A stretch of DNA of 64,000 bases from an uncultured Planctomycetia bacterium (GCA_964484255.1 CAZAEH010000001.1:68674-132673); one strand, 5' to 3'; shown: positions 8,366 to 32,390, counted from the stretch's first letter. Numbers and translations are program-made. The notes: a model not told the origin generated them from the sequence alone.

Positions 8366-8386
8366 TGGCGCTTCTCCTATCGGGTC

Positions 8387-8623: not shown

Positions 8624-8635
8624 CTTTATCCTCCT

Positions 8636-8950: not shown

Positions 8951-8951
8951 G

Positions 8952-9658: not shown

Positions 9659-9758
9659 GGGGATATTCTATTACTTTAAAGGGGAAAACTCAACCTGAAA
9701 CGAACGCTTGCTTGACCTGCGTTTCCGCGCCAAAGAAAATTTCAGGCTGGCCCGGCCG

Positions 9759-10532
9759 TCAGATCTTTTTACCGATATAAAAAACATATCCGTAATACTG
9801 CTTGTATTTTGAATACAGCTCGGCTTCATGCTTCATGTACCCGACAAAAGTCTCCGCAGTTTTATTTCCGGCGTTATCTTCCAAAAATGCTTTTTGTACC
9901 GCTTTTTGCGGGATAAAATATGTGTCCGTCCAGCATTCTTCAGGCAATATAAAAGCGGCGACAAGGCTATAACCGGTTTTTTGCATTATTGAGATATTAT
10001 GCCCTATTGTACCCATTTCAGGGACAGCATCGACCCAAAACTTCTCGATCTCAGCGGGCCGTTCATCGGTAAACCATGACTCATACGTTAGAGCGATATA
10101 GCCGCCTTTTTTCAGGAAGCCTTTCCAATAGTTCAGGCCCTTTTGAAAACCTATATTGGCGATAGCTCCTTCAGACCATATAACGTCGAATTTTTCATTC
10201 TGGAACGGTAAATTGTCCATTGAACCGACGATGCCTTTTACCCTGTCCTGCAAACCGAGCTTTTCGGCATTTGCGTTAAACTTCGCGATAAAACCGGGAA
10301 ATAGGTCAAGCCCGGTAATTGTCCCTTTTGTGTGTTGCGCAAGGACCATAGTCTGGCCGCCCGTTCCGCAAGCAAGGTCCGCGATCTCCAATTCATCTGA
10401 AAAATTGTCGATAAAACTTAACGCCCTGACAGTGGATTCGACGCTGCCGGGACCCTGCCGCTCCAGCCTTCCGAAATAATCACAAATTAACTTTGGATCA
10501 AAATCGTGAATTAACGCTTCGTCATTTTCCAA
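9759..10532 (-). CDS. Class I SAM-dependent methyltransferase
   Basis: [10 protein letters not shown] motif I. Confidence 0.8.
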
Positions 10533-10595
10533 TACATTTCTCCATCAAATTAGCCGGTATTTCGTATAAATTCACGCTTTAATGGCCCGGCGTTA

Positions 10596-11150
10596 CTATG
10601 TCTTCGCTCCTAAATAGAAGACCATGTTGTCGGACGGCCGGACTAAGATGATCTCGACCGCTGAGGGGTATGTGCTATGGAAACAGGCGCTCCAAAGATA
10701 TATGAACATCTTATCAGATCGGATCTCGTCTTCCTTCGGGAACCACGAGATCTTCTCCCAACGCGAGTATCCTACAACAAAATCGACAGCCTTGCTTATA
10801 ATCTCGGGCAATTGATCTCCGCGATACCAGCTGACGCAAAATTCGTTTGGACCGGGCGTTAGCTCTGCGGGATCAACGTGGCTGATCTTGATGGCAAAGG
10901 CATCAAGATGATCGCCTGTGAATGATCGAGGAGATCGATAGCTGTAGATCACCTTCTCAATGCGGTCATCTCCCAGGTTGCACCAGTTCAACACAAAACG
11001 GACATCCTCGTTCTTTACGGAGTTGATCTCTTCCTTATTACCGAATTGCATCTGGTATATGATGAGTCCGGAGAGCAAGAGAACGCCGAGGAGAGAGATT
11101 ATTCCCCATGCGAGAAGAAGCCGTTTTACTACAGAGGTGATCTTTTTCAT
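10596..11150 (-). CDS. Membrane-anchored hypothetical protein
   Basis: N-terminal TM helix. No recognised domain. Confidence 0.5.
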   Translation of the reverse strand: MKKITSVVKRLLLAWGIISLLGVLLLSGLIIYQMQFGNKEEINSVKNEDVRFVLNWCNLGDDRIEKVIYSYRSPRSFTGDHLDAFAIKISHVDPAELTPGPNEFCVSWYRGDQLPEIISKAVDFVVGYSRWEKISWFPKEDEIRSDKMFIYLWSACFHSTYPSAVEIILVRPSDNMVFYLGAKT

Positions 11151-11160
11151 TTCATCTGTT

Positions 11161-11466
11161 CACCTTTCTTTTTTATGTTTTTTCAATAACTCGCTAACTA
11201 AAATACCGTCAATAGTCATACCCTGAATATTGCAATCAACTATCTTAACGTTCGACATATCAACCTTCCGGAAGGTGCTGTCGCACAACATAGCTTCCTC
11301 AATATCGCTAAGATTGATATTATGGAACTTCGCTTTACTTAAAGTTCATATCATTAAAATCGGCTCCGGAAAGGTTTACATCGTGGAATTCGGATCCGGA
11401 AATATCCGCATGATCAGCCAGGTGCTTTCCGCATTTAATCGTCGGTTCCATTTTATTGTTTCTCAT
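11161..11466 (-). pseudogene. Pentapeptide-repeat protein gene interrupted by a frameshift and in-frame TAA
   Basis: Frame A reads MRNNKMEPTIKCGKHLADHADISGSEFHDVNLSGADFNDMNFK then stops. Frame A+1 continues with AKFHNINLSDIEEAMLCDSTFRKVDMSNVKIVDCNIQGMTIDGILVSELLKKHKKER. The A(D/N)(L/F)xx repeats continue across the break. Confidence 0.6.
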
Positions 11467-11470
11467 ATTT

Positions 11471-11752
11471 CTATTTTCCTCCTGTAAAGGCCACGATTAT
11501 TACGACAACCGCCGGCAAGAAGAGAAGCAACCAGCCGCCAAAGGCGACAAAGCGTCCAGGGGTTTTTCCGGTGATTGCACCTCGTCCGAACCCGACGCCC
11601 GTATAGGCACCCATGGCATCGCTGAACCAGATACAGGCTAATGGGAGGATCAAGAAGATAGCAACACGCCAAGTCAATTCCGGACCATTGGTAAAATATG
11701 CAACCACCAGATACCCAAGGGCAATGATTCCAGAGATAACCTTGCTTTTCAT
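11471..11752 (-). CDS. Small membrane protein (about 94 aa, 3 TM), cassette-like gene 1
   Basis: ORF with RBS. AT-rich. Lies directly after repeat E1. Followed 4 nt later by the pentapeptide pseudogene. Confidence 0.55.
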   Translation of the reverse strand: MKSKVISGIIALGYLVVAYFTNGPELTWRVAIFLILPLACIWFSDAMGAYTGVGFGRGAITGKTPGRFVAFGGWLLLFLPAVVVIIVAFTGGK

Positions 11753-11760
11753 TTTTCTAT

Positions 11761-11841
11761 CTCTAACTCTAACGATTGAGCTCAGCAAGTGCGACATAAA
11801 AACAGGATGCCGACGTAATCCGCTGAAGTGAAATGTTAGAA
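11761..11841 (-). repeat. attC-like imperfect palindromic repeat E1 (inverse-core TTCTAAC overlapping the gene 2 stop codon ... core GTTAGAG)
   Basis: Pairs with E2 over most of its length (about 70 of 80 bp by eye). R and L boxes are separated by unpaired spacers and one arm carries an extra base. Confidence 0.55.
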
Positions 11842-12225
11842 GTTCATTTTTTCCGAGTACCATTCATAAATGTATATTGTAATGATAATAGCTGCTAAAA
11901 ATAACGGTGCCTCACCTAGGAAATTAGCTATTCCTGTTACTGCAATCCATTTAAAAAATACTAAAGACAAAAGCCCTAATACGTTTCCTGCGGCAAAGCA
12001 AAAAAACCCTACGATTGATTTATAAAACAGGGCGATGTTCCCAACAAATGTCAATATTAGAGCTACGAATAGCATTATAATACCTACGATATTCGCTGTT
12101 CCTTTCCCCATTTCATATACTTCCGCAGGAACAGCAAATCTACTAAAAAAAGGATAAATAATCGCTGCTATTAAAAGAACTAAATGTGATACTAATAAAT
12201 AATTAAAATATTTTTTTAAACTCAT
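11836..12225 (-). CDS. Small membrane protein (129 aa, 4 TM), cassette-like gene 2
   Basis: ORF with AGGAGAGAA RBS. AT-rich. The TAA stop lies inside the E1 inverse-core. Confidence 0.6.
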   Translation of the reverse strand: MSLKKYFNYLLVSHLVLLIAAIIYPFFSRFAVPAEVYEMGKGTANIVGIIMLFVALILTFVGNIALFYKSIVGFFCFAAGNVLGLLSLVFFKWIAVTGIANFLGEAPLFLAAIIITIYIYEWYSEKMNF

Positions 12226-12234
12226 TTCTCTCCT

Positions 12235-12309
12235 TCTAACGTTTGAACTCAGCGGGTGGACCCTTATAAACAGGACGCCGGGACAGTCCGCTGGAATAAA
12301 ATGTTAAAT
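12235..12309 (-). repeat. attC-like imperfect palindromic repeat E2 (inverse-core ATTTAAC ... core GTTAGAA)
   Basis: Starts 3 nt after the gene 3 TAG stop. Ends 9 nt before the gene 2 ATG. Same architecture as E1. Confidence 0.55.
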
Positions 12310-12312
12310 GTT

Positions 12313-12588
12313 CTATTTCTGTTTTATTAATTTATTTTTCACGATGACTAATATTGCTGCCACCGATAACGAGAAAATAATATCTATTAATAAATTTGGC
12401 GCTATAAAAGTACTTGAGAGCTCAGTATCTGTAGTAAAATCTATTACGGTATCGTAATAAATAAACGGAAATCCAAGACTGATTGAATTGATTGGGTGTT
12501 TTGTTATACTGTATATAATCTCGCCTACCAAAAGGACCGATGATAGCACCAATACTTGGATTATTGCTTTTGTTATATTGTTTTTCAT
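12313..12588 (-). CDS. Small membrane protein (91 aa, 2 TM), cassette-like gene 3
   Basis: ORF starting MKNNITK. AT-rich. Confidence 0.5.
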   Translation of the reverse strand: MKNNITKAIIQVLVLSSVLLVGEIIYSITKHPINSISLGFPFIYYDTVIDFTTDTELSSTFIAPNLLIDIIFSLSVAAILVIVKNKLIKQK

Positions 12589-12600
12589 ATTAATCTTCCC

Positions 12601-12660
12601 ATAATGATTGAACTCAGCGGGTGCGAGCAATACGAACTCCGCCGGAGTAAAATGCTAAAC
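12601..12660 (-). repeat. Degenerate attC-like repeat E3, directly after the TolC operon
   Basis: Aligns to E1 and E2 (TTTAGCATTTTACTCCGGCGGA...CACCCGCTGAGTTCAA). Terminal core positions are decayed. Confidence 0.45.
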
Positions 12661-12721
12661 TTTATTTTTGGATTAAGTCCTTAACTCAAAGTTTACATTG
12701 GGGTTAGGTGTTTGTAAAGGG

Positions 12722-14050
12722 CTATTTCATGCCTTGCGAGATGATACCCACGGACTTTTCGTACTTGGCGCGGGAGGTGAGGTAATCCGATATCGCGGAA
12801 GCACGGTTCTGTTTTGCGGAAACAAGCTGGGTCTCGGCGTCGGTCACTTCAATTATGGAACCGAGGCCCTCTTCGTAGCGCGCGTTCGCGATCTCAAGGT
12901 TCTCGGAGGACTGCTGCAGCAGCTTACCCGTAACATCAAACCTCTCCTTCGCTTCCCCTAGGCCGAGCACCGCGTCCTGGACCTCGAGGGTTATCCTTAA
13001 GGACTCGTCTTCTATGGCGTATTGCGCCATCTTGAGGCTCGCCTGCGCGGCCTCGACCTGAGACTTCGTCCTGAAACCGTCAAACCACGGGAAATTCACC
13101 GAGATACCGGCATTCCAGCTCTTGACGTTGCCGACACCCTCGGTATCGGTATCGCTGACCTGCTGCGCGCCGGCCGCCGAGACGGTAGGCCAGTTGCCTT
13201 TCTTCTTGACCTCGAGGTCCGCCTGCGCCGCGCGCGCCTGCGCCTGCAGCTTGACGAGCTCTACACGGTTGTCCATGGCCGTCTTTAGCGCCTTGGCAAG
13301 ATTTATCTCCTGCGATTCCGGCATGCCGTATTCCTCCACCGCGAAATCAGAGCTGTCCTTGTTGCCCATTACGTTATTCAGCGACGCCTTGGTGAGCTTG
13401 TAATCTTTTTCCGCGGTAACAAGGCTGAGCTTAGCATTGGAGACCTCGACTTCTGCTTTGGTGACATCATATCTCTGCCTGTAACCGACCTCAAAAAACC
13501 CTTCGGCCCTTTCCAAGTGCACCTGAGACTGCTTAAGGTCCTCCCTCGCGACAGCAAGCATCAGCTGAGCCCTTAATACGGCATAATAGGCCTTCCTGGC
13601 CTCGAGTATCGTGTTCTCCTGCGCCTCAAGGAAAGCGCACTGCGCCGAGGTAAGGTTCTCTTTAGCGAGCTTTATGCTGTTGAGTGTCTTGCCGAAATCC
13701 CATATCAGCTGGCTTACCCCTGTGGATTCCTGCGCGATATTGTAACGCTTGGCAAACCCTCCCATAGAGACCATCGCCTCGCTGTCCGGCCCGAGCGTTA
13801 CCTTGGAGGTATCATAATGTGTATACCCTCCCGAGGTGGATACCTGAGGCATATATGCCGATTTTGCCGTCCCGACCATTGCCTTATAGAAATCCGAATT
13901 CCCCGCGGCTTCCTTAAGTTTCGGGTTGTTGGCAAGCGACGCCTTTACGCAGTCGTTAAGGGTCAAGACGGGTATTTCTTCCGGATAGCCCCAGGGCGCA
14001 GCCGCCAGCACAAGCGTCAATATGACTATTATCTTACGTATAAGTGACAT
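12722..14050 (-). CDS. TolC-family outer-membrane efflux protein
   Basis: Signal peptide and coiled-coil-rich OEP repeats. Last gene of the efflux operon. Confidence 0.8.
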   Translation of the reverse strand: MSLIRKIIVILTLVLAAAPWGYPEEIPVLTLNDCVKASLANNPKLKEAAGNSDFYKAMVGTAKSAYMPQVSTSGGYTHYDTSKVTLGPDSEAMVSMGGFAKRYNIAQESTGVSQLIWDFGKTLNSIKLAKENLTSAQCAFLEAQENTILEARKAYYAVLRAQLMLAVAREDLKQSQVHLERAEGFFEVGYRQRYDVTKAEVEVSNAKLSLVTAEKDYKLTKASLNNVMGNKDSSDFAVEEYGMPESQEINLAKALKTAMDNRVELVKLQAQARAAQADLEVKKKGNWPTVSAAGAQQVSDTDTEGVGNVKSWNAGISVNFPWFDGFRTKSQVEAAQASLKMAQYAIEDESLRITLEVQDAVLGLGEAKERFDVTGKLLQQSSENLEIANARYEEGLGSIIEVTDAETQLVSAKQNRASAISDYLTSRAKYEKSVGIISQGMK

Positions 14051-15162
14051 CACATAGTCCTCTTGAATGTCAGTGTTGCAAGGAAAAGCATGAGCGCCGT
14101 AAAACATGCCAGGAACAGCAGGTCGCCCCTGACCGCGGCGAAACCCGTGCCTTTCAATATCAAGGACTTAAGCGCGTGGACCGCGTAGGCCTCAGGGTTG
14201 ACCGCCGCAAAAGCCCTGAGCCAGCCCGGCAGGCTCTCTATAGGATAAACCGCGCCGCTCGGGAAATAGAATATTACGTTCAGGAAGCCTATGGTGACAC
14301 CGACAATACGCGGATGGTCCGCCCTTCCCAGGACCATGAATATCATGCTAAGAAGGCCAAGCGCCGTAAGCACTATGGTAAATACCAGCAGCGCAAATGA
14401 CATCAGGCCGCCGGCAAGTTTTATCCCCGTTATGAACATACCTCCCATCATGACAAGAAAAGACATTATGGTCGTAATAAAAACACCGCTTATTATAGTC
14501 CCGACGACTATATCCATCCTGGTAAGCGGCGTCGACAGGTAGCTCTCATGTATGCCGAGGAACTTGTCCATCACGATGCTGAAAGCCCCCGTGAAAGTGG
14601 TCCCCATAAATATCGCCATGACTATTATGCCGGGCACCAGTGACGCGTCATAATCGATCTTCTTGTAAAGTTCCACAGCCCTGAACTGCGTCTTCGCCAG
14701 CGTCAAGCGCACAGAGATATACTCCGACTTCAGGTAGTTCATGGCGCGTGAGACGGCGCTGGATACCCCCGCGGCGGAAATGCTGTCGGTATTATCGAGG
14801 AAAAGTCCTATCTGGGGATTCACGTCCTTGACGACATCCTCGCTGAAGCGCGGCGGAATAATCAAGGCCCCCTTGTAAAAACCATTCTTAACCGCCTCTA
14901 TCGCGGCCTTCTGGTCGGTCATCTTTGTTATGTCGAGCGTGCGCGGGCCGTCCCTTAACGCCTGCAGGAGCTCAGTGACGCGCCTGGCATAGGGGCCGTT
15001 ATCCTGGTCGATGATGACAACGGGTATGTGCTTGAGCTCGCCCTGGAAAGAGTTGCCCATTATAATAAGGTAGACCAAGGGCATGAGGATGCTCGCTATT
15101 ATCACTATCGGGTTACGCGAGAACCTCCTAAGGTCCCTCTCTGTTATGGCTAACGCTCTCAT
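14050..15162 (-). CDS. ABC-2 type transporter permease
   Basis: 6 TM helices after a large N-terminal periplasmic loop. Adjacent to an ATPase. Confidence 0.8.
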   Translation of the reverse strand: MRALAITERDLRRFSRNPIVIIASILMPLVYLIIMGNSFQGELKHIPVVIIDQDNGPYARRVTELLQALRDGPRTLDITKMTDQKAAIEAVKNGFYKGALIIPPRFSEDVVKDVNPQIGLFLDNTDSISAAGVSSAVSRAMNYLKSEYISVRLTLAKTQFRAVELYKKIDYDASLVPGIIVMAIFMGTTFTGAFSIVMDKFLGIHESYLSTPLTRMDIVVGTIISGVFITTIMSFLVMMGGMFITGIKLAGGLMSFALLVFTIVLTALGLLSMIFMVLGRADHPRIVGVTIGFLNVIFYFPSGAVYPIESLPGWLRAFAAVNPEAYAVHALKSLILKGTGFAAVRGDLLFLACFTALMLFLATLTFKRTM

Positions 15163-16169
15163 ACGCGCGCTCCCGGCATCTGTTTCGGCGCCCCGGCCCC
15201 GGAGAAGAAGTTCACCTTCTGGGCCTCTGTCTCCCTTATCGTCTTGCCCGTGTAGTGTATAAAGACATCCTCCAGGGATTGCTCGTGTATAGCAAGATAA
15301 TCGATCGAGACGTTCATCTTCCTGAGTTCTTCGATTATCACCGGCATCGATTTGGCCGCATCCTCGACATAGACCCTTATGGCCTCGTCCTTCTCGGTAA
15401 TGTTCTTGACGAAAGGCATCGCTTTAAGCTTCGCGTCGGCCTCGGGCGATAAATTGCCCAATGTCATTTCGATGATATCGAACCCGCCGATGCTCCTCTT
15501 GAGGTTGGACGGAGAATCGAGCACTACTATCTTGCCGTAATCGACAATGGCTATCCTGTCGCATAGTACATCGGCCTCGTCCATGTAATGCGTGGTTATG
15601 AAAATGGTCAGTTTCGTCTCCCGGCGGATCTTCTGCAGGAGTTCCCATATGACACGGCGCGACTGCGGGTCAAGGCCGGTCGTGGGTTCATCAAGGAAGA
15701 GTATATACGGCTTGTGTATCAGGCCGCGGGCTATCTCAAGGCGGCGCCTCATGCCTCCCGAATACGTCGCCACGAGGTCCTTCGCCCTGGCCGTCAAGCC
15801 TACAGTCTCCAGGAGGTATTTCATGCTCTCTTGGCGCTGTTTTTTCGGGATGTCGAAATACTTGCCGTAAATATCAAGGTTCTCCCACGCGGTAAGGTCG
15901 AGGTCGGAGGTCATCGCCTGCGAGACTACGCCTATATTCCTCCTGACATGCGCCGGGCGCTTGACGACATCGATACCCCTGATACTCGCCTGCCCGGAAG
16001 TCGGCCTCACAAGGCACGTAAGGATCCTGTTCAGGGTCGTCTTACCGGCCCCATTGGGGCCTAAAAGGCCGAAGATCTCGCCCTCGTCGACGTTGAAACT
16101 TACGTCGTTGACGGCGATGACCGACGGGTACTTCTTTACTATATTATGCGCTTCTACCGCGTATGCCAT
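15159..16169 (-). CDS. ABC transporter ATP-binding protein
   Basis: Walker A GPNGAGKTT and Walker B LDEPTTGLD motifs. Confidence 0.9.
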   Translation of the reverse strand: MAYAVEAHNIVKKYPSVIAVNDVSFNVDEGEIFGLLGPNGAGKTTLNRILTCLVRPTSGQASIRGIDVVKRPAHVRRNIGVVSQAMTSDLDLTAWENLDIYGKYFDIPKKQRQESMKYLLETVGLTARAKDLVATYSGGMRRRLEIARGLIHKPYILFLDEPTTGLDPQSRRVIWELLQKIRRETKLTIFITTHYMDEADVLCDRIAIVDYGKIVVLDSPSNLKRSIGGFDIIEMTLGNLSPEADAKLKAMPFVKNITEKDEAIRVYVEDAAKSMPVIIEELRKMNVSIDYLAIHEQSLEDVFIHYTGKTIRETEAQKVNFFSGAGAPKQMPGARV

Positions 16170-16173
16170 ATTC

Positions 16174-17088
16174 TTATTCTTTGAACTCGACGGTTGCGGT
16201 CATGCCTTGCTTGAGCACGCCTTTCGGTTCGTCTATCTTCGTCTTTACCCTGTAAGTCTTTATGTCCTGCCTGCCGCGTTTTACGTCCCTCTGTGTCGCG
16301 AACTCGCCTTCGCTGTTTATCTCGGTAACGCGACCTTTGAATTCCTGTCCGGGGAGCGAATCCACCCGTATGCTTACGATGTCACCCAACTTTATCCTGG
16401 AAACAGCCGTCTCCTCGACATCCACGCGTACCCATATATCTGACAGGTCAACTATTGTAAGTATCGTGGAGCCGATCGAGGCCATCTCGCCGGGTTCATA
16501 TGCCCGGAGCGTCACTGCTCCGGAGAGCGTAGAATCTATCACCGTGTCCTCAAGATTTGTCTTTGCCACCTTGAGCGCGGCCTTCGACTGCTTTACGCTC
16601 GCTTCGGCGAGGGATTTTTGCGCCTCGGCGCCGTTCAAGTCGGCAACGGCGGTATCGTAGGCCGTCTTGGCCTTGTCCACGTCGTTCTGGGCGACAAGTT
16701 TCTTTTCCAGCAGTTTGCTGTTGCGGTCGAGGTCACGTTTAGTGTCCTCGATGCGTACCTTTACCTTTTCTATATCGGCCGCCGCGGTCAGCACATTCGC
16801 CCTTGCCACATCAAGATTTGCTTCGGCCTGTTCAAACTCGGCCTTTCTCTTCCGGTCATCGAGCACAATCGCCACTTCGCCGGCCTTGGCATAATCACCT
16901 TCACGGAACCTGACTTCGCTTATCCTTTCGGATATCTTTGGCGCCAGGTTCACCTCCGTGGCCTCTACGATCCCCGTAGTCTTGAATATCCCTTTCGGCA
17001 GGCGACGCGGCATTATGTAAAGAACTCCTGCGGCCAATACGGAAAGGGCCGCCAAAAGGATGATCACTTTTTTCAAATGTTTCTTCAT
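16174..17088 (-). CDS. HlyD-family membrane fusion (periplasmic adaptor) protein
   Basis: N-terminal TM helix, coiled coil, beta-barrel and lipoyl motifs. Confidence 0.8.
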   Translation of the reverse strand: MKKHLKKVIILLAALSVLAAGVLYIMPRRLPKGIFKTTGIVEATEVNLAPKISERISEVRFREGDYAKAGEVAIVLDDRKRKAEFEQAEANLDVARANVLTAAADIEKVKVRIEDTKRDLDRNSKLLEKKLVAQNDVDKAKTAYDTAVADLNGAEAQKSLAEASVKQSKAALKVAKTNLEDTVIDSTLSGAVTLRAYEPGEMASIGSTILTIVDLSDIWVRVDVEETAVSRIKLGDIVSIRVDSLPGQEFKGRVTEINSEGEFATQRDVKRGRQDIKTYRVKTKIDEPKGVLKQGMTATVEFKE

Positions 17089-17675
17089 TTCAAGAGGCCT
17101 CCTAATAATATCTTCCTGATATTCTCCTTTACCTGCTGCCCCGTATACGAGACTTCGCCGAGAAGTATCGGTATCAACGCTATCTGCATCATTCCTATGA
17201 TATTGTATGAAGTCACCCTGGGATCCATTTTTTTGAAAACCCCTTTATCTATACCGTCACTTATAATACCTTCTATTATCTCCGCGTACGGCATAATACC
17301 GAATTTGAGGCCGTGCCTGATCATCAGCGGCTTTCCGCCCGTCTTATTGAACAATATCCTGAAGAAACTGCCGCCGGACGTCGCGAACTTCACGTGCAAT
17401 TCTATAAGACGCTCGAGCTTGTCTTTCGGGGAATCTATTCCGGAGAGGCTCGTAACAACATTTTTCCTGAACTCCGCGGCCTTCTCCTTGATCATGTTTA
17501 TGTAAAGCTCTTCCTTACTCCTGAAATAATGGTATATTATGCCTTCGGATACCCCGGCCTGGCTAGATATCTGCTGGGTCGTGGCGTTGTCAAAACCCTC
17601 CCTCGCGGTGATGGAAAGCATCGCCTCTATTATCTTCTGCCTGGTATCTGTCTGTACTGCCGCCGCTTGAGTCAT
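17085..17675 (-). CDS. TetR/AcrR family transcriptional regulator
   Basis: HTH motif TQQISSQAGVSEGIIYHYFRSKEELY. Start placed at MTQAAAV with a GGAGAAAC RBS. Confidence 0.85.
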   Translation of the reverse strand: MTQAAAVQTDTRQKIIEAMLSITAREGFDNATTQQISSQAGVSEGIIYHYFRSKEELYINMIKEKAAEFRKNVVTSLSGIDSPKDKLERLIELHVKFATSGGSFFRILFNKTGGKPLMIRHGLKFGIMPYAEIIEGIISDGIDKGVFKKMDPRVTSYNIIGMMQIALIPILLGEVSYTGQQVKENIRKILLGGLLK

Positions 17676-17685
17676 GTTTCTCCTA

Positions 17686-17705
17686 TTGAGTGAGCACTCA
17701 CTCAA
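17686..17705. promoter_or_regulatory. Perfect palindrome TTGAGTGAG-CA-CTCACTCAA, candidate TetR operator
   Basis: 9-bp arms, located 10 bp upstream of the tetR start at the head of the efflux operon. Confidence 0.55.
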
Positions 17706-17763
17706 TATGGTAGTATACAGCTTCAACCTATGTTTGTCAAGATGTTATTTACTTTATGGGAGA

Positions 17764-18444
17764 TCAGCCTATCCAGAGCCCCTCAAGCCGCACCTGGTAA
17801 CCTTCGGCGGTACGGTTAAGGTAGTTGATAAGGCCGCTGTGCCTCCATTGCAGCATGCACATGCGGGGCTGGAAATAATACCGCGCGCCGATCTTAAGCT
17901 CCCGGCGCGTCTCGGTTATCATCCCCTCATATCCTTCCGCTATATAATAGCCGAGGTCCTTATACCCTTTCTGCCTGGGATTAAGGGGACCTGTTACGCA
18001 CCATACCATCACGCCGGTGCGCTTGTCTACGCTCATGGCTATACCGCAATGGGTTATGGGGCAGCCGCAGGAGATACCCAGCGGACGGCCTATAAGCACG
18101 TCGCCTACCTGCACGTCGAGTTCACGCGTTATCATCGGATTATGCGGTATGATTATCTCCCTCGGGCCCGGGTCTTCCTTGAAATGCTCCAGGAAAAAGT
18201 CAAAATCCCTGCCGAGCGAGTCCTTCCATGCCGTCCCGGCCGAAGGCAACCTCTCGGGGTCCTTGCCCGCGGACAAGGTATTATCGGATAAATGTATGCA
18301 CCTTTTTAGGAGATCCGGTTTTTTCTCCAGCTGCTCCGAGAGTTCGTTACACGTCTTATACCCGCAAGCCCCGCAATTAAGCGAAGGCAGTTCAAACTTG
18401 CTTTCCTTCATCTTATTCTCCCCTGTAGAATGTCTGTTCTTCAA
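17764..18444 (-). CDS. Fe-S cluster-binding protein (RnfB-like C-x2-C-x4-C-x16-C N-terminal domain) with an uncharacterised C-terminal Cys-rich domain
   Basis: LNCGACGYKTC...C pattern and CGCPITHC motif. Confidence 0.6.
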   Translation of the reverse strand: MKNRHSTGENKMKESKFELPSLNCGACGYKTCNELSEQLEKKPDLLKRCIHLSDNTLSAGKDPERLPSAGTAWKDSLGRDFDFFLEHFKEDPGPREIIIPHNPMITRELDVQVGDVLIGRPLGISCGCPITHCGIAMSVDKRTGVMVWCVTGPLNPRQKGYKDLGYYIAEGYEGMITETRRELKIGARYYFQPRMCMLQWRHSGLINYLNRTAEGYQVRLEGLWIG

Positions 18445-19114
18445 GTGGCCTTACTACGCCAAAGTGTGATTGCCAGCCTATGTCCTTCTTGCCAACACAA
18501 ATAGTGCACGTCCCTACCGGAGGGTTGCCTCGCAACATCAGGTTGTCTCCGGCATCGGGCATCTCCTCCACCCTCCTGACAAGCGCATCTATACCTATAC
18601 CTCTAAGAGCGTCCACTTCTTTTATCCAGACTTTGGGCGCGGCCTCCATTATCCTGGCGCGGAAAACCTCCCTCTCCGCCTGTGATATAAGATCTATCTT
18701 GGTGACTACCGCTATATCGGACAGGCTCAACATGGGGCCGACCTTCCTTGGCAGGTTCATTCCGCTTGTGGCCTCAAGCACCACTATCCCCAACCCTCCG
18801 TCCGCATAAGGGGAACAGCGCAGGCAAAGTCCGGCCGTCTCCACTATAAGGAATTCGCATCCTGCGCGCTTCGCCCACTGCATCGCATCTCCCAGCACCA
18901 TTACATTGCAGTGGTCCGGGCAAAGTTCTCCCGAGTAGGTCTTCTTGGTCGGTATACCGAACTCCTTGGCGAGGATTTCGTCCTCATCCGCGTACTGGAC
19001 ATCTATCTTTAAATAAGCTACGGTTTTACCGTCCGCCAGGAGCTTACGGATAACGTGCCTTAAAACGGATGTCTTGCCCGTCGTGGCGGTACCCGCGCAA
19101 ATGATCAGTTTCAT
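18413..19114 (-). CDS. P-loop NTPase of the SIMIBI/G3E type (HypB/UreG/MobB-like) with several Cys pairs
   Basis: Walker A CAGTATTGKTS, VETAG and TKIDL motifs. CPDHC, CLRC and CTIC motifs. Confidence 0.6.
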   Translation of the reverse strand: MKLIICAGTATTGKTSVLRHVIRKLLADGKTVAYLKIDVQYADEDEILAKEFGIPTKKTYSGELCPDHCNVMVLGDAMQWAKRAGCEFLIVETAGLCLRCSPYADGGLGIVVLEATSGMNLPRKVGPMLSLSDIAVVTKIDLISQAEREVFRARIMEAAPKVWIKEVDALRGIGIDALVRRVEEMPDAGDNLMLRGNPPVGTCTICVGKKDIGWQSHFGVVRPLEEQTFYRGE

Positions 19115-19896
19115 ATGGCCACCTCCAGGTCTTCGTCCATCAATTGGTCTCCCACGCGTATTTTTTCGCGCAGCTTATGCATGATATCGTCGACTATGCG
19201 GATCTTCTTAGATAACGTCCTCTCTTCCTCGTTCGATCTCAGGACTTTTACCATCATGCCTTTCCGCATCACTATGCGGATGTCTGAAAGCAGCGCTATA
19301 TACGGGTCATGGGTCACAAATATGAATATCTTCCTGTATTTCCTGAGTAAATCCAAGGCGTGGGTGCGGTGGATACCGGCATTCTCTATTTCGTCGAGCA
19401 GTATTATCGGCGAATTGCCGATAACGACCGCGTCGGCTATGAGCAGGGCGCGTGTCTGGCCGCCCGAAAGCTCGGTCATGCGGGAATCCCTGGATATCGG
19501 TTCGCCCGTAAGCTGATTGGCGAACGCAAGGGTCTCAGAAACTATTCCTTCGGCCTGTACCGTGCTCGAACTGCGTATCCCCGCATGTATGGTCAGAAAA
19601 TCATGCACGGGAAGGTCGGAAAGGAAGTTCGTATGCTGCGTTATGGCGGCTACCGGGTTCCTTGACGGGTCTTCCCTGTACTCCTGCAATGGCGCAACAC
19701 CGTTTACCAGGACCTTGCGTTTTGTCGGGGTAAAACCGTCCGCGAACAACTGTATCTCATTGATCAGGGTGGTCTTTCCCGATCCGGTTGGGCCCACGAT
19801 ACTTATAACGTCCCCCATCCTGAACTTGACCGAACGGACAGGCTCCTCTTCCCCGCTCCTGCCGTTACCTCCAATAATACTTATCTCTTCTATCAT
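19111..19896 (-). CDS. Soluble ABC-type ATPase with no cognate permease
   Basis: GPTGSGKTT, LSGGQ, ILLLDE and THD motifs. Confidence 0.75.
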   Translation of the reverse strand: MIEEISIIGGNGRSGEEEPVRSVKFRMGDVISIVGPTGSGKTTLINEIQLFADGFTPTKRKVLVNGVAPLQEYREDPSRNPVAAITQHTNFLSDLPVHDFLTIHAGIRSSSTVQAEGIVSETLAFANQLTGEPISRDSRMTELSGGQTRALLIADAVVIGNSPIILLDEIENAGIHRTHALDLLRKYRKIFIFVTHDPYIALLSDIRIVMRKGMMVKVLRSNEEERTLSKKIRIVDDIMHKLREKIRVGDQLMDEDLEVAI

Positions 19897-19944
19897 TTTA
19901 CCCCCTTTTCCTATTGTATTAGTAGGATAACAATCTAAAAAAAA

Positions 19945-20349
19945 TCAGACCAAGTCCTTAAGGGTCGTCTTCTCGAGTTTTACGGATATATAGTCCCTGA
20001 TCTCCTTCATGAGTTTCGTAAGCTTCTTCTCCTTCTCTATTATGGTAGGCTTGTAGAAATGCACGCTTACCGAATCCACCGGAGCAAGCGGCCCGTCAAA
20101 AAGCCTTATGACCTGGGCTACGGTTATCTGCCCGGGTTTTCTTGCCAGCTTGTAGCCGCCCTTTTGCCCCTTCGAACTCGACACCAGCCCTGCCCTTAAC
20201 ATGGTATGCATTATATGCTCCATGTACTTGAACGGCAGTTTTTGTTCCTCGGTTATTCTGGAAAGCGGGATAAGTTCCCCGTTCGCCGAGTGACGGCTGA
20301 GGTACAAAAGAGCAAGCAAAGCATATTCACTGTGCGTAGTAAGTCTCAT
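19945..20349 (-). CDS. Rrf2 (BadM/IscR/NsrR) family transcriptional regulator
   Basis: Typical Rrf2 N-terminal wHTH (MRLTTHSEYALLALLYL...). Confidence 0.85.
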   Translation of the reverse strand: MRLTTHSEYALLALLYLSRHSANGELIPLSRITEEQKLPFKYMEHIMHTMLRAGLVSSSKGQKGGYKLARKPGQITVAQVIRLFDGPLAPVDSVSVHFYKPTIIEKEKKLTKLMKEIRDYISVKLEKTTLKDLV

Positions 20350-20370
20350 TACCTACCTTCCTTGTATGGA

Positions 20371-20425
20371 TTATATTATGGCGAAGAAAGGCCTGTCAAC
20401 AAAAATCGTTCATTATTTGAACGAT
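20371..20425 (-). promoter_or_regulatory. Sigma70-like promoter (TTGACA-N18-TATAAT) for the Rrf2 operon, preceded by palindrome ATCGTTCA-N5-TGAACGAT
   Basis: Read in minus sense. The palindrome overlaps the stop codon of the upstream oxidoreductase gene and is followed by TTTTT, so it may also act as a terminator. Confidence 0.5.
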
Positions 20426-20988
20426 ATGGTATCCAGCTCCCGAAGCATCTTTTCCCGTTCGTCGCTGGAGACCGCTGGGACTGCATGGAAGAACTTATGG
20501 AGGGTTACTTTGATCCCGCAAAGGCTGAAAATCCCTATATCCATGGTCTTGGCCAGGGCATCCTTAAACCCGTTATCCCTGTAATCTTCTTCTGTGCCGC
20601 CTGTCGTGTTTATTATGACCGCTCTCTTATCCGTAAAGAGGCCCTTAAGGCCGTTTTTATCCGAAGTGTAGGCAAAGCCGTAGGAGAAGACTCTGTCGAT
20701 ATAGCCCTTCAATACCGCCGGCTGCCCGAACCACCAGATAGGATGGATAAAAATAATCGTCTCACAAGCCCTTATATAGTCCTGTTCCTTCCTGATGTCT
20801 TCCGGAGTCTTGCCCGCCTTAAAAGCAACGAGATCGGCGCCTTTAAGAACCGGGTCGAACCCGAAGGCATATAGGTCCCTTGTCTCGACTTCATTGCCTT
20901 CGCTCTTCAGCTTAGTTTCAATCTTTTCTTTGATGGCATGGTTGAAACTTTTAGGGTTAGGATGAGCATAAATTATAAGGTATTTCAA
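20413..20988 (-). CDS. NAD(P)H-dependent oxidoreductase, flavodoxin-like fold (NQO1/KefF-like)
   Basis: MKYLIIYAHPNPKSFNHA N-terminus. Confidence 0.8.
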   Translation of the reverse strand: MKYLIIYAHPNPKSFNHAIKEKIETKLKSEGNEVETRDLYAFGFDPVLKGADLVAFKAGKTPEDIRKEQDYIRACETIIFIHPIWWFGQPAVLKGYIDRVFSYGFAYTSDKNGLKGLFTDKRAVIINTTGGTEEDYRDNGFKDALAKTMDIGIFSLCGIKVTLHKFFHAVPAVSSDEREKMLRELDTISFK

Positions 20989-22382
20989 TTCATATCCTCC
21001 TTCCCGAATACCTCGAACTCATATAGTGAATATCCGTACTTAGTGCTGCGCTCCGTTCCATACATACGCACATATCTTCCCGTGGCGTTAAGGCCGGTTA
21101 TCTCTTCGGTGCTGCCTGCGCCTTTTTCCGTGGAATATACCGTCATCCATTCTTTAGCATCATCGGAGACCTGTATCTTATACGCCTTGCCCGAGGCAGT
21201 CTCCCATTCCAGGCGTATCGCTTCTATGTCACACGGCTTGCCCAGGTCCACATACATCCATTGCGGATCGAAGAACTCGGATGACCACCTGCTGTTCATA
21301 TCGCCATCGGTAGCATAATTCGCCGGCATGGATTCGTTCTCCGACGAGGAAGCCACAGCCTCTTTGCCCCTCGAAATAAGCTTGGGGGCATCGGGATCCG
21401 TGACAAAATCCGCCGATATTTTCTTATGCTTCGTCATTATTATCCGTGCCGGGTTCCCTGCCCCAAGCGAAGGATCTCCCTGCCAGCCTGCGAACTTATA
21501 GCCTATCTTCGGGACCGCGGTAAGCTTCACTTTCTCTCCCTTGCCGTATCTGGGTAGGCGGGGATCAACACATATCTTACCATTCCCGGATGACGTCATC
21601 AGAAAATATGTCCCGGGTATTTCCTTGGCATAGACACGGACATAATCTATCTCGTGGTACTGGGGAAAAACAGTCGTGGCATCGGGATTTCCGGGCATTA
21701 TCCCTCCCACCGCGGTGTTAAGGATTATGTAAAAGGGCTCTTTCGGGACGTTGCGGGATACGGAAGACCTTTCCACGCCGTCTATATACCAGCGGAGCTC
21801 TTCCTCATCCCACTCAAGGGCAAAGACATGGAAATCCCGGGTATAGTCCGGACCGGAGTATACTTTGGTGTCATACCTGTTATGCGGCCATACGCCGTAA
21901 TGGTTGGTCATGTGTATAACGTTCGGCTTGTTCCCTACCAGTTCCATTATGTCTATCTCCGGAGGCCAGGAACCGCGTTCAGGCATCATCCAATGCGCCG
22001 GCCATAGGCCCTTGGTCCCGGGCAACTTGGCCCTCACCTCCACCCTGCCGTACTGGAAGGTAAACCTGCCCTTTGTCTCAACCAACCCCGACGTATAAGG
22101 ACGCCCTCCCATGCGCTGCTTAGCGCTCTTCAATATCAGCTTGCCGTCCTTGAGATAAACGTTCTTCGGGGTATAATATTGCTGTTCGTTGTTCTTGACC
22201 AACGCCGCGTCTTCAACATACCATTTGGACTTGTCGATCCTGTCCCCGTTAAATTCATCGCTCCAGATAAGGTACCAGCCCTTTATGCCGGGAGCAGCTG
22301 CCTTATTCTGGACAGCCGATTCTGACGCTTGCGGAAGCAGCAGAGATAATAAAACAACGATGTAAGCGATCTTTTTGCGCAT
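20985..22382 (-). CDS. GH16 beta-glucanase with Ig-like repeat and C-terminal F5/8 type C (discoidin/CBM32-like) domain
   Basis: EIDIMELVG catalytic motif (ExDxxE). Discoidin-type C-terminal region. Signal peptide. Confidence 0.8.
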   Translation of the reverse strand: MRKKIAYIVVLLSLLLPQASESAVQNKAAAPGIKGWYLIWSDEFNGDRIDKSKWYVEDAALVKNNEQQYYTPKNVYLKDGKLILKSAKQRMGGRPYTSGLVETKGRFTFQYGRVEVRAKLPGTKGLWPAHWMMPERGSWPPEIDIMELVGNKPNVIHMTNHYGVWPHNRYDTKVYSGPDYTRDFHVFALEWDEEELRWYIDGVERSSVSRNVPKEPFYIILNTAVGGIMPGNPDATTVFPQYHEIDYVRVYAKEIPGTYFLMTSSGNGKICVDPRLPRYGKGEKVKLTAVPKIGYKFAGWQGDPSLGAGNPARIIMTKHKKISADFVTDPDAPKLISRGKEAVASSSENESMPANYATDGDMNSRWSSEFFDPQWMYVDLGKPCDIEAIRLEWETASGKAYKIQVSDDAKEWMTVYSTEKGAGSTEEITGLNATGRYVRMYGTERSTKYGYSLYEFEVFGKEDMN

Positions 22383-24329: not shown

Positions 24330-25097
24330 CTATTTGTCCTGTCTCCCCGAACAAGCGGGGCAGTTTTTGTCAGTCAATACCCTAAGCAACTTGAAGTTCC
24401 CGGTCTTTGCGTCGTATCTCAATAATTTCCCCGATAAAGTCTCGCCAATACCCGTAAGGAATTTGAGCGCTTCAGTAGCCTGTATGGCCCCGATAGAACC
24501 CGGGACAGAGCCCAATAACCCGGCCTCTTCGGGAGGCAGTACCATGCCCGGTGCAGGAGGTTTGGGAAAAATACAGCGATAACAAGGGCCTTTACCCGGG
24601 ACCACAACGGTAACCTGGCCTTCCCACCTGTATACCCCTCCCATCACAACGGGTTTGCCGGACTTAACACATGTATCATTGACAAGGTATTTGGTGGCAA
24701 AATTATCCGAACATTCGATCACGATATCATAATCCTTAATGATGCTACCTATGTTCCTGCCATCCAGGCGGACATTATAAGTGGTAAATTTTACGTCGGG
24801 ATTAAGTGATGAGAGCCTTTTGTAAGCAAGCGTTACCTTGGGGGCCCCCGTTTCATCGAAGGAATACAGGACTTGCCTGTGGAGATTGGAAAGATCGAGA
24901 TCATCAGAGTCCACCAGACCTATCCTTCCGACCCCGCACGATGTCAGGTATAGGGCTACAGGGGAACCCAGCCCTCCGACCCCAACAATAAGCGCGGATG
25001 AAGACAATAGCTTAGACTGGCCCTGCCTGCCTATATCAGAAAAATTGATATGTCTCCTGTATCTCTCAACCTGGTCCGCCGAAAGTTCAGGTGACAT
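24330..25097 (-). CDS. MoeB/ThiF-family E1-like adenylyltransferase
   Basis: GVGGLGSPVALYLTSCGVG nucleotide-binding motif. C-terminal CxxC. Confidence 0.85.
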   Translation of the reverse strand: MSPELSADQVERYRRHINFSDIGRQGQSKLLSSSALIVGVGGLGSPVALYLTSCGVGRIGLVDSDDLDLSNLHRQVLYSFDETGAPKVTLAYKRLSSLNPDVKFTTYNVRLDGRNIGSIIKDYDIVIECSDNFATKYLVNDTCVKSGKPVVMGGVYRWEGQVTVVVPGKGPCYRCIFPKPPAPGMVLPPEEAGLLGSVPGSIGAIQATEALKFLTGIGETLSGKLLRYDAKTGNFKLLRVLTDKNCPACSGRQDK

Positions 25098-25485
25098 CTA
25101 CGACCTCCTCGCTTACCGAACCGGATGCTATCTTGAACGAACGAATCTCGGGCATTTTATCGGCTAAAGATATTATAAGATAAGAACAGCCGGCATGGGC
25201 GGAAAGTTTTATGTCCAGCAAAGAAGGATAGGCCCGGGTATGCGGATGTGAGTGGTATATGCCCACCATCTCAAAACCGTCGGATCTTATCCGCTTCTGG
25301 ACCTCAAACTGTTCCCCGGCGGAAAATGAGTACCTGTCCTCCGCTTTTTCGGCATTTGTCATCCTATATAACTTGAAGACCTTACCGTCCCTACCTGCTA
25401 ATATACCGCACGCCTCGTTCGGGAAGGAACCCCTGGCATGCCGGATGATATCATCCAAGTGGGCCCCGCTCAATGAAAGTTTCAT
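25087..25485 (-). CDS. JAMM/MPN+ (Mov34) metalloprotease
   Basis: HSHPHTRAYPSLLD JAMM motif. Start taken at MKLSLSG. The longer ORF would overlap the PiT gene. Confidence 0.75.
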   Translation of the reverse strand: MKLSLSGAHLDDIIRHARGSFPNEACGILAGRDGKVFKLYRMTNAEKAEDRYSFSAGEQFEVQKRIRSDGFEMVGIYHSHPHTRAYPSLLDIKLSAHAGCSYLIISLADKMPEIRSFKIASGSVSEEVVDVT

Positions 25486-26456
25486 TTCAGCACTACGCCA
25501 AGAATACGTAATAGGGAGTAGGTCAACATCGAGGACAAGAACGGTACTACGACCCATATAAGGGCGATCTTGATGAAGTGGTGCCGCTTCAGGCTCTGTA
25601 TTATTCCCATATCGGCACAGCGCAGACCGATAAGACCGGAGGTTACGGTAACAGACACCGACAACGGAATTCCGTTCATCGAGGCTGTCAATAATGCCAC
25701 AGCGCATATCAGTTCTATGACAATAGCCCTGACCAGCCCGATCTCCCCCATCTCCTTTTCGCCCTTTTCGAGAGCGCTTTTACCGAAGATCAGGGCACCG
25801 GCAGCGATACCAAGGCCTCCCAGGAGCAGGGACCACTCCCTCCCCGCAAATCCTGCCGCTACTACCGGGGCCATCGCTTTCCCGACGCCATTCGCCCCTC
25901 CGGCAAAAGCCACAAAACATCCGGAAAAAGTCAATAAGGCGCCTAGAAAACCTTTTATCCTATCCTCGTCCTTGAGATACCTGAAATACCCCGCCGGTTT
26001 GGATACAAGAATCCGTCCGGCAAAAAAAGCTATGCCAAAAACCGCTATAGGGGATATAAACCACCATTCGAGGACATCGACGAACTTCTCGGTGTTCAGG
26101 GTCTCAAAATATATACCGGTAGCTGCTATTGAGGAGACTATGGCGTATGAGGTTGGTATCGGGACCTTGAACAGGTTGGATACGAAATCAAAAGCCGCAG
26201 CCACAGCCATGACAACGAAGACCACATAGAACACGGACTTGAATGTCCTGGCAGGCACAACGCCGTCGCTCAGGGTCTTGAGAACGGGCAAACCGGAAAT
26301 TATAGCTCCAAGGATGACGAAGATCGCAATGAGGGCAACAGCCTCTTTTTTCGTACGGACACCGGTCCTGTATGCGGCTTCCATTTCCGCCGCCGCATTG
26401 TTGGCGCCCACGTTCATCGCGAGGAATATGGCAATAAGGACCGTCAGGAACATCAT
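25482..26456 (-). CDS. PiT-family inorganic phosphate transporter
   Basis: NVGANNAA (GANDVAN-like) motif. Multi-TM protein. Confidence 0.7.
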   Translation of the reverse strand: MMFLTVLIAIFLAMNVGANNAAAEMEAAYRTGVRTKKEAVALIAIFVILGAIISGLPVLKTLSDGVVPARTFKSVFYVVFVVMAVAAAFDFVSNLFKVPIPTSYAIVSSIAATGIYFETLNTEKFVDVLEWWFISPIAVFGIAFFAGRILVSKPAGYFRYLKDEDRIKGFLGALLTFSGCFVAFAGGANGVGKAMAPVVAAGFAGREWSLLLGGLGIAAGALIFGKSALEKGEKEMGEIGLVRAIVIELICAVALLTASMNGIPLSVSVTVTSGLIGLRCADMGIIQSLKRHHFIKIALIWVVVPFLSSMLTYSLLRILGVVLK

Positions 26457-32381: not shown

Positions 32382-32390
32382 CTTACTGTA

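Follow-up and report, generated by a model that had tools for sequence, protein, structure and literature searches.

The 64-kb stretch of DNA analyzed here (hereafter, the window), from an uncultured Planctomycetia bacterium (GCA_964484255.1 CAZAEH010000001.1:68674-132673), encodes on its minus strand, at 17764-20425, an Rrf2-family regulator and a trio of further proteins: a soluble ATP-binding cassette (ABC) ATPase, a G3E-class GTPase, and an iron-sulfur (Fe-S) protein of the COG2000 type. All positions in the module are those of the whole window. The four genes are a real operon, one conserved unit, and our analyses show that the trio is a real, ancient, self-contained unit tied to sulfur enzymes. 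From gene context only, we infer, tentatively, that the trio may be a nucleoside triphosphate (NTP)-driven metallo-redox system that turns reduced sulfur into sulfite for sulfonate-forming enzymes.

Strict anaerobes that live on sulfide, methanogens among them, need sulfite to make the sulfonate of coenzyme M (CoM) and sulfonolipids, and where this sulfite comes from has been a question for decades. The trio is a concrete, testable candidate for that source: other lineages have it in an operon with one or the other of the two known sulfite-adding enzymes. Should the sulfite idea fail, the module would still be among the most conserved uncharacterized modules of Archaea and many bacterial phyla, and it contains a confidently predicted domain for which no structural relative was found. 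It also yields a new candidate Rrf2 operator motif and a cluster-free Rrf2 protein tied to sulfur genes outside the Firmicutes. Every component family except the C-terminal domain of the Fe-S protein is known already, and the methanogen trio has been noticed before (PMC12068725); the bacterial version that includes a desulfurase and Rrf2, the candidate operator, and the switching of partners between two sulfite-adding enzymes appear to be new.

Conservation of the trio across bacterial phyla

We scanned one genome per prokaryotic species (185,579 species genomes) and obtained 239 pattern-matched stretches with relatives of the Fe-S protein. The best 80 of these 239 relatives, together with locus L005, make up a set of 81 bacterial loci. 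In 76 of the 81, the ABC, GTPase, and Fe-S genes adjoin one another and run in the same direction, and three of the five exceptions are cut by a contig end. The genes had been proposed to form one linked unit in an earlier note, made by a model from the sequence alone, and the gene neighborhoods across genomes bear this out. Trio carriers span more than 12 bacterial phyla, and they were found among Omnitrophota, Planctomycetota, Chloroflexota, Verrucomicrobiota, Acidobacteriota, Nitrospirales, Armatimonadia, Hydrogenedentota, Lentisphaerae, Bacillota, Bdellovibrionota, Thermodesulfobacteriota, and Eremiobacterota; the alphaproteobacterium Pararhodospirillum oryzae is a cultured carrier. Across the bacterial phyla, the GTPase retains 70-80% identity, the ATPase 57-67%, and the Fe-S protein 55-71%. 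We regard the source of the window as an Omnitrophota-like bacterium, and the same six genes as in the window are found on a contig of "Candidatus Omnitrophica bacterium UBA6215," with 85-97% amino-acid identity.

When the open reading frames (ORFs) of these loci were clustered, only two genes beyond the trio were present in more than 12 loci: an upstream rrf2 (36 loci) and an inserted gene of ~390 aa. The module had also been said to match no standard named operon such as isc, suf, hyp, ure, or coo. Indeed, all of the NCBIfam equivalog models (HypB, UreG, MobB, RnfB, IscR, NsrR, CymR, and the ABC transporter families) gave scores far below their cut-offs. Our literature search for a bacterial cluster combining desulfurase, G3E, ABC, Rrf2, and PF04060 proteins found nothing relevant. 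Two close-clade Fe-S genes, in L049 (an Eremiobacterota chromosome, 8001-8675) and L071 (1111-1791), have no adjoining ATPase or GTPase gene despite enough flanking DNA; their partners may be encoded elsewhere in the genome.

Coupling to sulfite-adding enzymes in methanogens and other divergent relatives

More divergent relatives of the Fe-S protein, including those of Methanomicrobiales and Methanobacteriales, are 27-40% identical to it and still have ATPase and GTPase genes beside them. In these divergent, methanogen-type loci, the GTPases are 54-63% and the ATPases 48-60% identical to those of the window, so the three proteins evolved together across domains. JGI names common to both sets are "uncharacterized Fe-S cluster-containing protein" and "Predicted Fe-S protein." We place the window's genes with the COG2000 trio based on full-length alignment, the GCPxxH...CMxxxxH domain, and the same gene order, with the COG label itself given by resemblance. 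In methanogens, a trio of "ATPase / Ni2+-binding GTPase / COG2000 Fe-S protein" is next to coenzyme M genes, and its role "remains unknown" (PMC12068725, Fig. 2B legend, 2025); our search of the literature on COG2000 found no other relevant paper. The methanogen trio and the window's trio share the three families, the gene order, and the GCPxxH...CMxxxxH core. The window's clade differs in that it is bacterial, has three more invariant Cys and two more invariant His in the C-terminal domain, and is usually accompanied by a desulfurase and a Cys-free Rrf2, whereas the methanogen trio is accompanied by ComA, cysteate synthase, ComDE, or MMP16.

The ComA reaction uses sulfite as a co-substrate. 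In Methanobacterium, there is an operon of ComA-ABC-GTPase-FeS with overlapping stop and start codons, in which ComA scores 324 bits against TIGR03849 (cut-off 280). A Methanospirillum-like locus has genes for MMP16, cysteate synthase, and sulfopyruvate decarboxylase after the trio, and all three exceed their NCBIfam cut-offs. We obtained 80 additional loci when metagenomes were scanned with the third clade. In 37 of these, which are all of those uncut at that point, cysteate synthase is encoded directly 5' of the ATPase gene and overlaps it, and ComDE and MMP16 often follow. We recognized these upstream cysteate synthases by BLASTP similarity (42-52% identity) to the proteins of L087 and L090, which are encoded 3' of the Fe-S gene and score 505-617 bits against TIGR03844 (cut-off 325). 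Cysteate synthase adds sulfite (PMC12713407, Fig. 2 legend). The folds of ComA and cysteate synthase are unrelated and their carbon substrates differ; sulfite is the one co-substrate that they have in common. The sulfite source for CoM in sulfide-grown methanogens has been stated to be unclear (PMC6286981).

One bacterial genome and two metagenome contigs (L173, L174, and L090) have the gene order ABC-GTPase-FeS-cysteate synthase-alpha-oxoamine synthase and no CoM genes. In Bacteroidota, the pair of cysteate synthase and alpha-oxoamine synthase starts sulfonolipid synthesis (PMC11211663, PMC9304779). The operon resembles the first part of a capnine-type sulfonolipid pathway outside the Bacteroidota, with the identity of the acyltransferase being putative. 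In L173, this five-gene operon is at 7493-12275; its last gene encodes a BioF/Kbl/serine-palmitoyltransferase-like acyltransferase, and a TetR gene is found 5' of the operon.

Near the Methanobacterium ComA-trio (L175-L177, ~12360-14160; L176, 3277-4410), there are genes for TfuA and a LarE-like PP-loop protein (223 bits, cut-off 150), and one Methanobacterium contig encodes a PAPS (3'-phosphoadenosine 5'-phosphosulfate)-reductase-like protein with a ferredoxin domain close to the ComA-trio; all of these are additional genes for sulfur handling that may or may not be related to the trio. We also considered MA3300-MA3303 as the trio genes of M. acetivorans, which was a dead end: MA3302 is the regulator MreA.

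A cysteine desulfurase is encoded within most bacterial copies

The inserted ~390-aa gene encodes a NifS/IscS-type cysteine desulfurase, with 449 bits against TIGR03402 and an SSGSACS active-site loop. At least 55 of the 81 loci carry it, either as an insertion between the GTPase and Fe-S genes or immediately 3' of the Fe-S gene, and a 50%-identical outgroup has it too. The window's 64 kb contain no desulfurase gene, so the module in the window is a short, minimal form. Sporadic neighbors of the bacterial module include CysE (five loci, above cut-off), a sulfate-binding protein plus CysT (four loci, above cut-offs), and a cystathionine-gamma-synthase-family enzyme (five loci). Genes for COG1900/MMP16, cysteate synthase, ComA, or PAPS-reductase-like proteins were found neither in the window nor in the 80 main-clade loci.

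In a separate sub-clade of COG2000-like Fe-S proteins (L086, L091-L103, and L107), no ATPase or GTPase is encoded beside the gene. These NTPase-less members adjoin a divergently transcribed NifS-type desulfurase, a small helix-turn-helix protein, and LarE (308 bits against TIGR00268, cut-off 150), which suggests a nickel-pincer-cofactor context or another thiolation context. As this sub-clade is also beside a desulfurase, the COG2000 family pairs with desulfurases independently.

Organization of the module in the window

All four co-directional ORFs that had been described at this place are present. The genes and associated features are as follows:

19945..20349, minus strand: Rrf2-family regulator, cysteine-free, CymR-like (134 aa; PF02082, 110 bits)
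19111..19896, minus strand: soluble ABC-type ATPase with no permease partner (261 aa; PF00005, 59.8 bits)
18413..19114, minus strand: G3E-class GTPase, HypB/UreG-like (233 aa; PF02492, 39.4 bits)
17764..18411, minus strand: COG2000-type Fe-S protein (215 aa; PF04060, 34.5 bits)
~18277-18411, minus strand: N-terminal [4Fe-4S] PF04060 domain of the Fe-S protein
17764-18231, minus strand: C-terminal Cys/His-rich beta-domain of the Fe-S protein, fold unmatched
20370..20399, minus strand: sigma-70-type promoter, TTGACA-18-TATAAT (12 of 12 consensus positions)
19908..19927, minus strand: candidate Rrf2 operator, TCCTACTAA-TACA-ATAGGAA (inverted repeat in the rrf2-ABC spacer)
20405..20425, minus strand: palindrome ATCGTTCA-N5-TGAACGAT, terminator-like (hairpin and U-run)

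The Fe-S gene starts at ATG 18411 and not at TTG 18444, in agreement with all homologs (2185/2185) and with the database gene call. The genes had been described as overlapping: the ABC and GTPase reading frames share 4 nt (ATGA), there is a gap of 1 nt from the GTPase stop to the Fe-S start, and the spacer between rrf2 and the ABC gene is 48 nt long. The strong sigma-70-like promoter was found as described, with a full match to TTGACA-18-TATAAT. It reads from 20399 to 20370 and drives rrf2, and probably the whole operon too; a similar TTGACA...TATA(A/C)T promoter is found 5' of rrf2 in many related loci. The downstream gene encodes a TetR protein and heads an efflux operon with its own promoter (11 of 12 positions) at 17740-17712; thus, we set the end of the module at 17764. 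The efflux operon (12722-17726, minus strand) comprises TetR, a membrane-fusion protein, an ABC ATPase, an ABC-2 permease, and an outer-membrane factor. Its TetR ORF is listed from TTG 17726 and probably starts near 17675, and it is 196 aa long in database calls.

The Fe-S protein joins a [4Fe-4S] domain to a C-terminal domain without a match in Pfam or the PDB

The Fe-S protein is composed of a [4Fe-4S] domain, a variable linker, and a 155-residue C-terminal domain (C-domain) with ~100 positions that are invariant in the window's clade. The N-terminal domain exceeds the PF04060 cut-off of 23 bits, and its motif, C13-x2-C16-x4-C21-x16-C38, is the C-x2-C-x4-C-x16-C Fe-S domain that the earlier note had recognized; its four Cys are invariant in 35 homologs. 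The same note called the protein RnfB-type, which is right for this cluster domain of ~40 residues, while the remainder is a distinct, unclassified domain. The RnfB model TIGR01944 gives only 17.5 bits (cut-off 68.7), the protein has no Fer4 domain, and the neighborhood is free of rnf genes. With both RnfB and the large subunit of the corrinoid Fe-S protein, the window protein has in common only the ~40-residue N-terminal [4Fe-4S] domain; unlike them, it has no ferredoxin repeats, membrane anchor, Rnf or Acs partner genes, or corrinoid domain.

The earlier note had described this second domain as Cys-rich and left it unassigned. The C-domain has no match in Pfam, even at E <= 10, and no match by sequence in the PDB. 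A HMMER search of 1.84 billion representative proteins gave 146 C-domain hits, mostly fragments. The C-domain alone matches the Methanomicrobiales-type protein P0172 with E = 3e-20. Among divergent full-length members, C117, H121, C185, and H191 (in GCPxxH and CMxxxxH) are nearly invariant, and this sequence pattern suggests a Cys2His2 metal or cluster site. In the window's clade, C115, C122, C138, H76, and H90 are additional invariant residues.

We modeled the protein with AlphaFold2. An alignment of 35 close homologs gave a pLDDT (predicted local distance difference test) of 51, and this model was discarded; a mixed alignment that included divergent members raised the value to 88.5. The resulting model is beta-rich, with a pLDDT of 88.5 overall and >90 in the C-domain. 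No Foldseek match to this model passed E < 1e-3, whether in the PDB (best E of 0.034, TM score of 0.18) or in BFVD. A relation of the C-domain to MOSC, PUA, or PilZ-like proteins was considered and rejected, as there were only sub-threshold barrel fragments.

The ATPase has no permease partner, and the GTPase resembles HypB and UreG

The ABC ATPase exceeds the PF00005 cut-off of 25 bits, and all of its motifs are intact: Walker A (GPTGSGKTT), Q-loop (ITQHT), signature (LSGGQTRAL), Walker B (ILLDEIE), and H-switch (FVTHDP). These motifs are kept in the bacterial and archaeal copies; a conserved Cys is absent. In the PDB, the protein comes closest to chains of generic exporter nucleotide-binding domains, and SufC is found neither within the 42 best PDB matches nor among the top NCBIfam hits. 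The best ABC transporter equivalog model gives 56 bits versus cut-offs of at least 206. No membrane protein is conserved beside the ATPase in the 81, 85, and 10 loci that we compared, so the initial reading of a solitary ATPase without a permease held across ~170 related loci.

The GTPase exceeds the cut-off (20.7) of the cobW/HypB/UreG family PF02492, which makes it a member of the G3E class. It has three Cys pairs (CPDHC, CLRC, and CTIC), and several motifs are invariant from bacteria to methanogens: GxxxxGKT (GTATTGKT), YSGELCPDH, ETAGLCLRCSP, TKID, and the C-terminal CTICVGK...HFGV. The HypB/UreG-type metal-binding signature reported earlier is therefore real. By sequence, UreG and HypB are its closest PDB matches, and the P-loop, ExxG Walker B, and (N/T)KxD motifs are common to all three. 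Where UreG has CPH and HypB has Cys-His, the window's GTPase has Cys-Pro-x-His, and there is a second Cys after Walker B. Unlike HypB and UreG, it has an extra C-terminal CxxC tail and is always paired with an ABC ATPase. Its scores of 42.1 bits against HypB (TIGR00073, cut-off 121.2) and 28.5 against UreG (TIGR00101, cut-off 204.2) place it in neither family proper, and hydrogenase or urease genes were not found in the window or related loci, nor were HypA or UreEF nearby. The additional label "MobB-like" had to be dropped, with scores of 16.5 for PF03205 (cut-off 26.6) and 16.6 for TIGR00176 (cut-off 76.2). Altogether, we rate the trio as a G3E-chaperone-assisted metalloprotein system. To our knowledge, the pairing of a nickel-chaperone-type GTPase with an ABC ATPase occurs in no characterized system.

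Sulfite formation as a possible function, and alternatives

The earlier note proposed that the module inserts or repairs metallocenters or Fe-S cofactors. The G3E metal signature and the conservation of the unit agree with part of this proposal. However, the presence of a desulfurase in most bacterial copies, combined with the coupling to ComA and cysteate synthase, favors sulfur chemistry, and specifically sulfite chemistry, over generic metallocenter insertion or repair. In the mechanism that we propose, reduced sulfur would be loaded on the Cys/His center of the C-domain, coming from the desulfurase persulfide in bacteria and from free sulfide in methanogens. It would be oxidized at this center, with electrons leaving via the N-terminal [4Fe-4S] cluster. 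The G3E GTPase would install or gate the metal or cluster at the C-domain center, the ABC ATPase would give a conformational or energetic drive, and the product, sulfite or sulfite-level sulfur, would feed ComA and cysteate synthase. NTPases would be needed because sulfide oxidation with low-potential acceptors is endergonic. A more specific version is somewhat doubtful: that the trio is a siroheme-independent, NTP-driven enzyme system converting sulfide, or cysteine-derived persulfide in bacteria, to sulfite, and is thereby the missing source of the sulfite that anaerobes use for coenzyme M, sulfonolipids, and other sulfonates. The new fold would then contain the active site, which would be matured or gated by the HypB-like GTPase.

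The same need, for sulfite amid sulfide, has been linked to the small siroheme sulfite reductases alSir and Fsr of methanogens and anaerobic methanotrophic archaea, which have been proposed to run backwards, giving sulfite for CoM (PMC6286981). These have no sequence or fold relation to the trio, which matched no siroheme-binding family and has two NTPases.

Several observations weigh against sulfite formation. Neither the window nor any of the 80 loci from its own clade has a sulfite-using gene, so the link to sulfite is transferred from clades in which the Fe-S protein is only 27-40% identical. We know of no siroheme-free enzyme for the six-electron conversion of sulfide to sulfite, and a 215-aa protein is small for this chemistry. 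Bacteria with sulfate-uptake genes at the locus could get sulfite from sulfate. The nearby MMP16, a thiol-forming CoM synthase, and LarE, a sulfur transferase, suit a sulfur-donor role equally well. Repressors of the CymR type, which the window's Rrf2 resembles (see below), are usual on cysteine biosynthesis genes and not on cysteine-consuming ones. Finally, all characterized G3E GTPases known to us are metal or cofactor chaperones, which suits the view of the earlier note.

That view can be spelled out as a machine that assembles or delivers Fe-S or mixed metal-sulfur clusters, in which the desulfurase would supply sulfur, the N-terminal domain electrons, and the GTPase metal, while the C-domain would be the scaffold and the ATPase would drive release, like SufC or HscA. 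The module has a desulfurase, an ABC-type ATPase, and a Cys-rich protein in common with the SUF and ISC systems, and the order of Rrf2 and then NifS-type desulfurase mirrors iscR-iscS. G3E GTPases are metallochaperones, and the ligand positions of HypB and UreG are kept; the C-domain has invariant Cys and His, and the extreme sequence conservation is like that of IscU or SufC. However, the loci contain no gene for SufB, SufD, IscU, NifU, or an A-type carrier, and the ATPase is not SufC-like, so the module does not qualify as a SUF system. The Rrf2 protein is without the cluster ligands of IscR, and we do not know of an Fe-S pathway that uses a G3E GTPase. Neither ComA nor cysteate synthase requires a metal cluster, which leaves their translational coupling to a general machine without a rationale, and such a machine would hardly be as rare as this module (239 stretches among 185,579 species genomes). 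Thus, we consider a cluster assembly role unlikely. We give a similarly low probability to a relay of persulfide or sulfur, gated by the NTPases, to thiol-forming or thiolating enzymes such as COG1900 MMP16, a homocysteine enzyme, LarE, or other PP-loop enzymes. Such a relay would account for the desulfurase inside the bacterial operon, for MMP16 adjoining the trio in Methanomicrobiales-type and other loci, and for LarE, which together with a desulfurase flanks the NTPase-less sub-clade and is also near the Methanobacterium trio. Yet the genes coupled tightly to the trio, with overlaps, are those for ComA and cysteate synthase and not that for MMP16, which is often on the opposite strand or absent (it is missing within +/-9 kb in Methanobacterium and from the bacterial L173), and the window and the 80 main-clade loci are without a COG1900 gene. 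A plain persulfide relay also needs neither a metal-chaperone GTPase nor a redox cluster.

The trio could instead work in the opposite direction in bacteria, as a siroheme-independent assimilatory sulfite or persulfide reductase, or in sulfite detoxification, within a cysteine-biosynthesis regulon. This would fit the CymR-like repressor and the genes for a sulfate-binding protein and CysT, CysE, and a cystathionine-gamma-synthase-family enzyme beside some copies, and small archaeal sulfite reductases have been suggested to be reversible (PMC6286981). We nonetheless regard this direction as quite improbable: a sulfite-destroying enzyme is illogical in an operon with sulfite-requiring enzymes in sulfide-rich anaerobes, the desulfurase in the operon supplies reduced sulfur that would be superfluous for a reductase, and sulfite reduction is exergonic and does not need NTP. 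The least probable explanation by far is that the genes are functionally unrelated neighbors, with the ATPase serving a transporter elsewhere and the GTPase being a stray HypB. The separate ABC-2 efflux operon just 3' of the module in the window might have pointed this way, but that operon has its own ATPase and promoter, and the trio is together in ~130 independent loci of Bacteria and Archaea, with its frames overlapping or abutting. As far as computation reaches, these conservation data refute such a chance association.

A cysteine-free Rrf2 regulator and its likely operator

The regulator belongs to the Rrf2 family, with scores above the cut-offs of both PF02082 (cut-off 30) and TIGR00738 (116.1 bits, cut-off 73.3). 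The earlier note had identified it as such and pointed to a family that senses Fe-S or nitric oxide (NO) status. The family assignment stands, but the window's Rrf2 contains no Cys at all and therefore does not sense Fe-S or NO through a cluster. Consistent with this, the models of cluster-sensing members give scores far from their cut-offs: 67 bits for IscR (cut-off 208), 48 for NsrR (182), and 40 for RirA (193). Nearly all of the Rrf2 proteins linked to the module in other loci are likewise without the three cluster ligands. The best specific model is CymR, with 82.7 bits, below its equivalog cut-off of 195. CymR is an Rrf2 protein without a cluster and cysteine metabolism's master regulator, with CysK as its partner in Bacillus. 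Like the CymR of Bacillus and Staphylococcus, the window's Rrf2 has no cluster-ligand cysteines and is tied to cysteine and sulfur genes. In B. subtilis, cymR is directly 5' of the cysteine desulfurase gene yrvO.

The inverted repeat TCCTACTAA-N4-ATAGGAA at 19908-19927, 32 nt before the ABC start, is the sole exact match in the window. Near-identical elements precede the ATPase gene or rrf2 in L006, in the Anaerolineae locus L060, and in the Omnitrophota loci L053 and L054. We built an operator matrix from these five sites (window, L006, L060, L053, and L054) and applied it to the other loci, leaving out the seed loci and using the 99th percentile of the background as the threshold. A site was found in 18 of 25 Rrf2-linked loci and in 1 of 35 loci without Rrf2 (Fisher p = 8e-9). 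Judging from this distribution of the motif, the element is likely an Rrf2 operator, at which Rrf2 probably represses the module. No sigma-70-like promoter was detected in the rrf2-ATPase spacer, so the operator site may act by blocking read-through from the strong upstream promoter.

A different palindrome, ATCGTTCA-N5-TGAACGAT at 20405-20425, had been highlighted in the earlier note, which proposed to test whether it recurs upstream of other genes. The palindrome is present in a single copy in the window, and only the nearest relative, L006, keeps it. The Flavodoxin_2 gene upstream (20413-20988) has its stop codon within the loop of the palindrome, and the 8-bp stem (-8.1 kcal/mol, z = -2.1) is followed by UUUUUG and was flagged by a terminator scan. 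The palindrome most likely serves the Flavodoxin_2 gene as a terminator hairpin, and we rejected it as an operator given its terminator-like form and its lack of conservation beyond L006. A second operator candidate, TCCATAC-N7-GTAGG just past the -10 box, was no more frequent than expected by chance.

In 11 Chloroflexota loci (L016, L017, L028, L032, L037, L044, L045, L065, L070, L079, and L080), two tandem rrf2 genes are found 5' of the ATPase gene, at ~4000-5200. The first encodes a Cys-free protein close to that of the window, and the second a more divergent protein, sometimes with scattered cysteines.

Surroundings of the module in the window

The remaining window is ordinary chromosome, with genes for DnaB, BamA, Lpx proteins, two GlnA, two Amt, NadE, phosphoribosyl pyrophosphate synthetase, and many glycoside hydrolases (GH). 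A search of the whole window with Rfam found no riboswitch or other RNA. Upstream of the module by 4 kb, a ThiF-family E1-like gene (24330-25097, minus strand) adjoins a gene with a prokaryotic JAB domain (25087-25707, minus strand). Such ThiF/JAB pairs are typical of sulfur-carrier systems of the ThiS/MoaD/CysO type; the pair is a further sulfur-transfer element, and its position near the module is not conserved elsewhere.

A nitrogen-assimilation cluster (40108-50040, minus strand) includes two glutamine synthetases (40833-42173 and 44770-46272), two ammonium transporters (46716-48074 and 48673-50040), a GAF-ANTAR regulator (40108-40836), and a glutamine-dependent NAD synthetase (42188-43906). 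Genes for polysaccharide use are found at 1786-6840, 20985-22382, and 29343-39999, and they encode GH2, GH16, GH35/42, GH94, and glucoamylase-like enzymes, carbohydrate-binding modules CBM9, CBM11, and CBM30, a ROK regulator, and a sugar-binding protein; the sulfur module is situated between the parts of this region.

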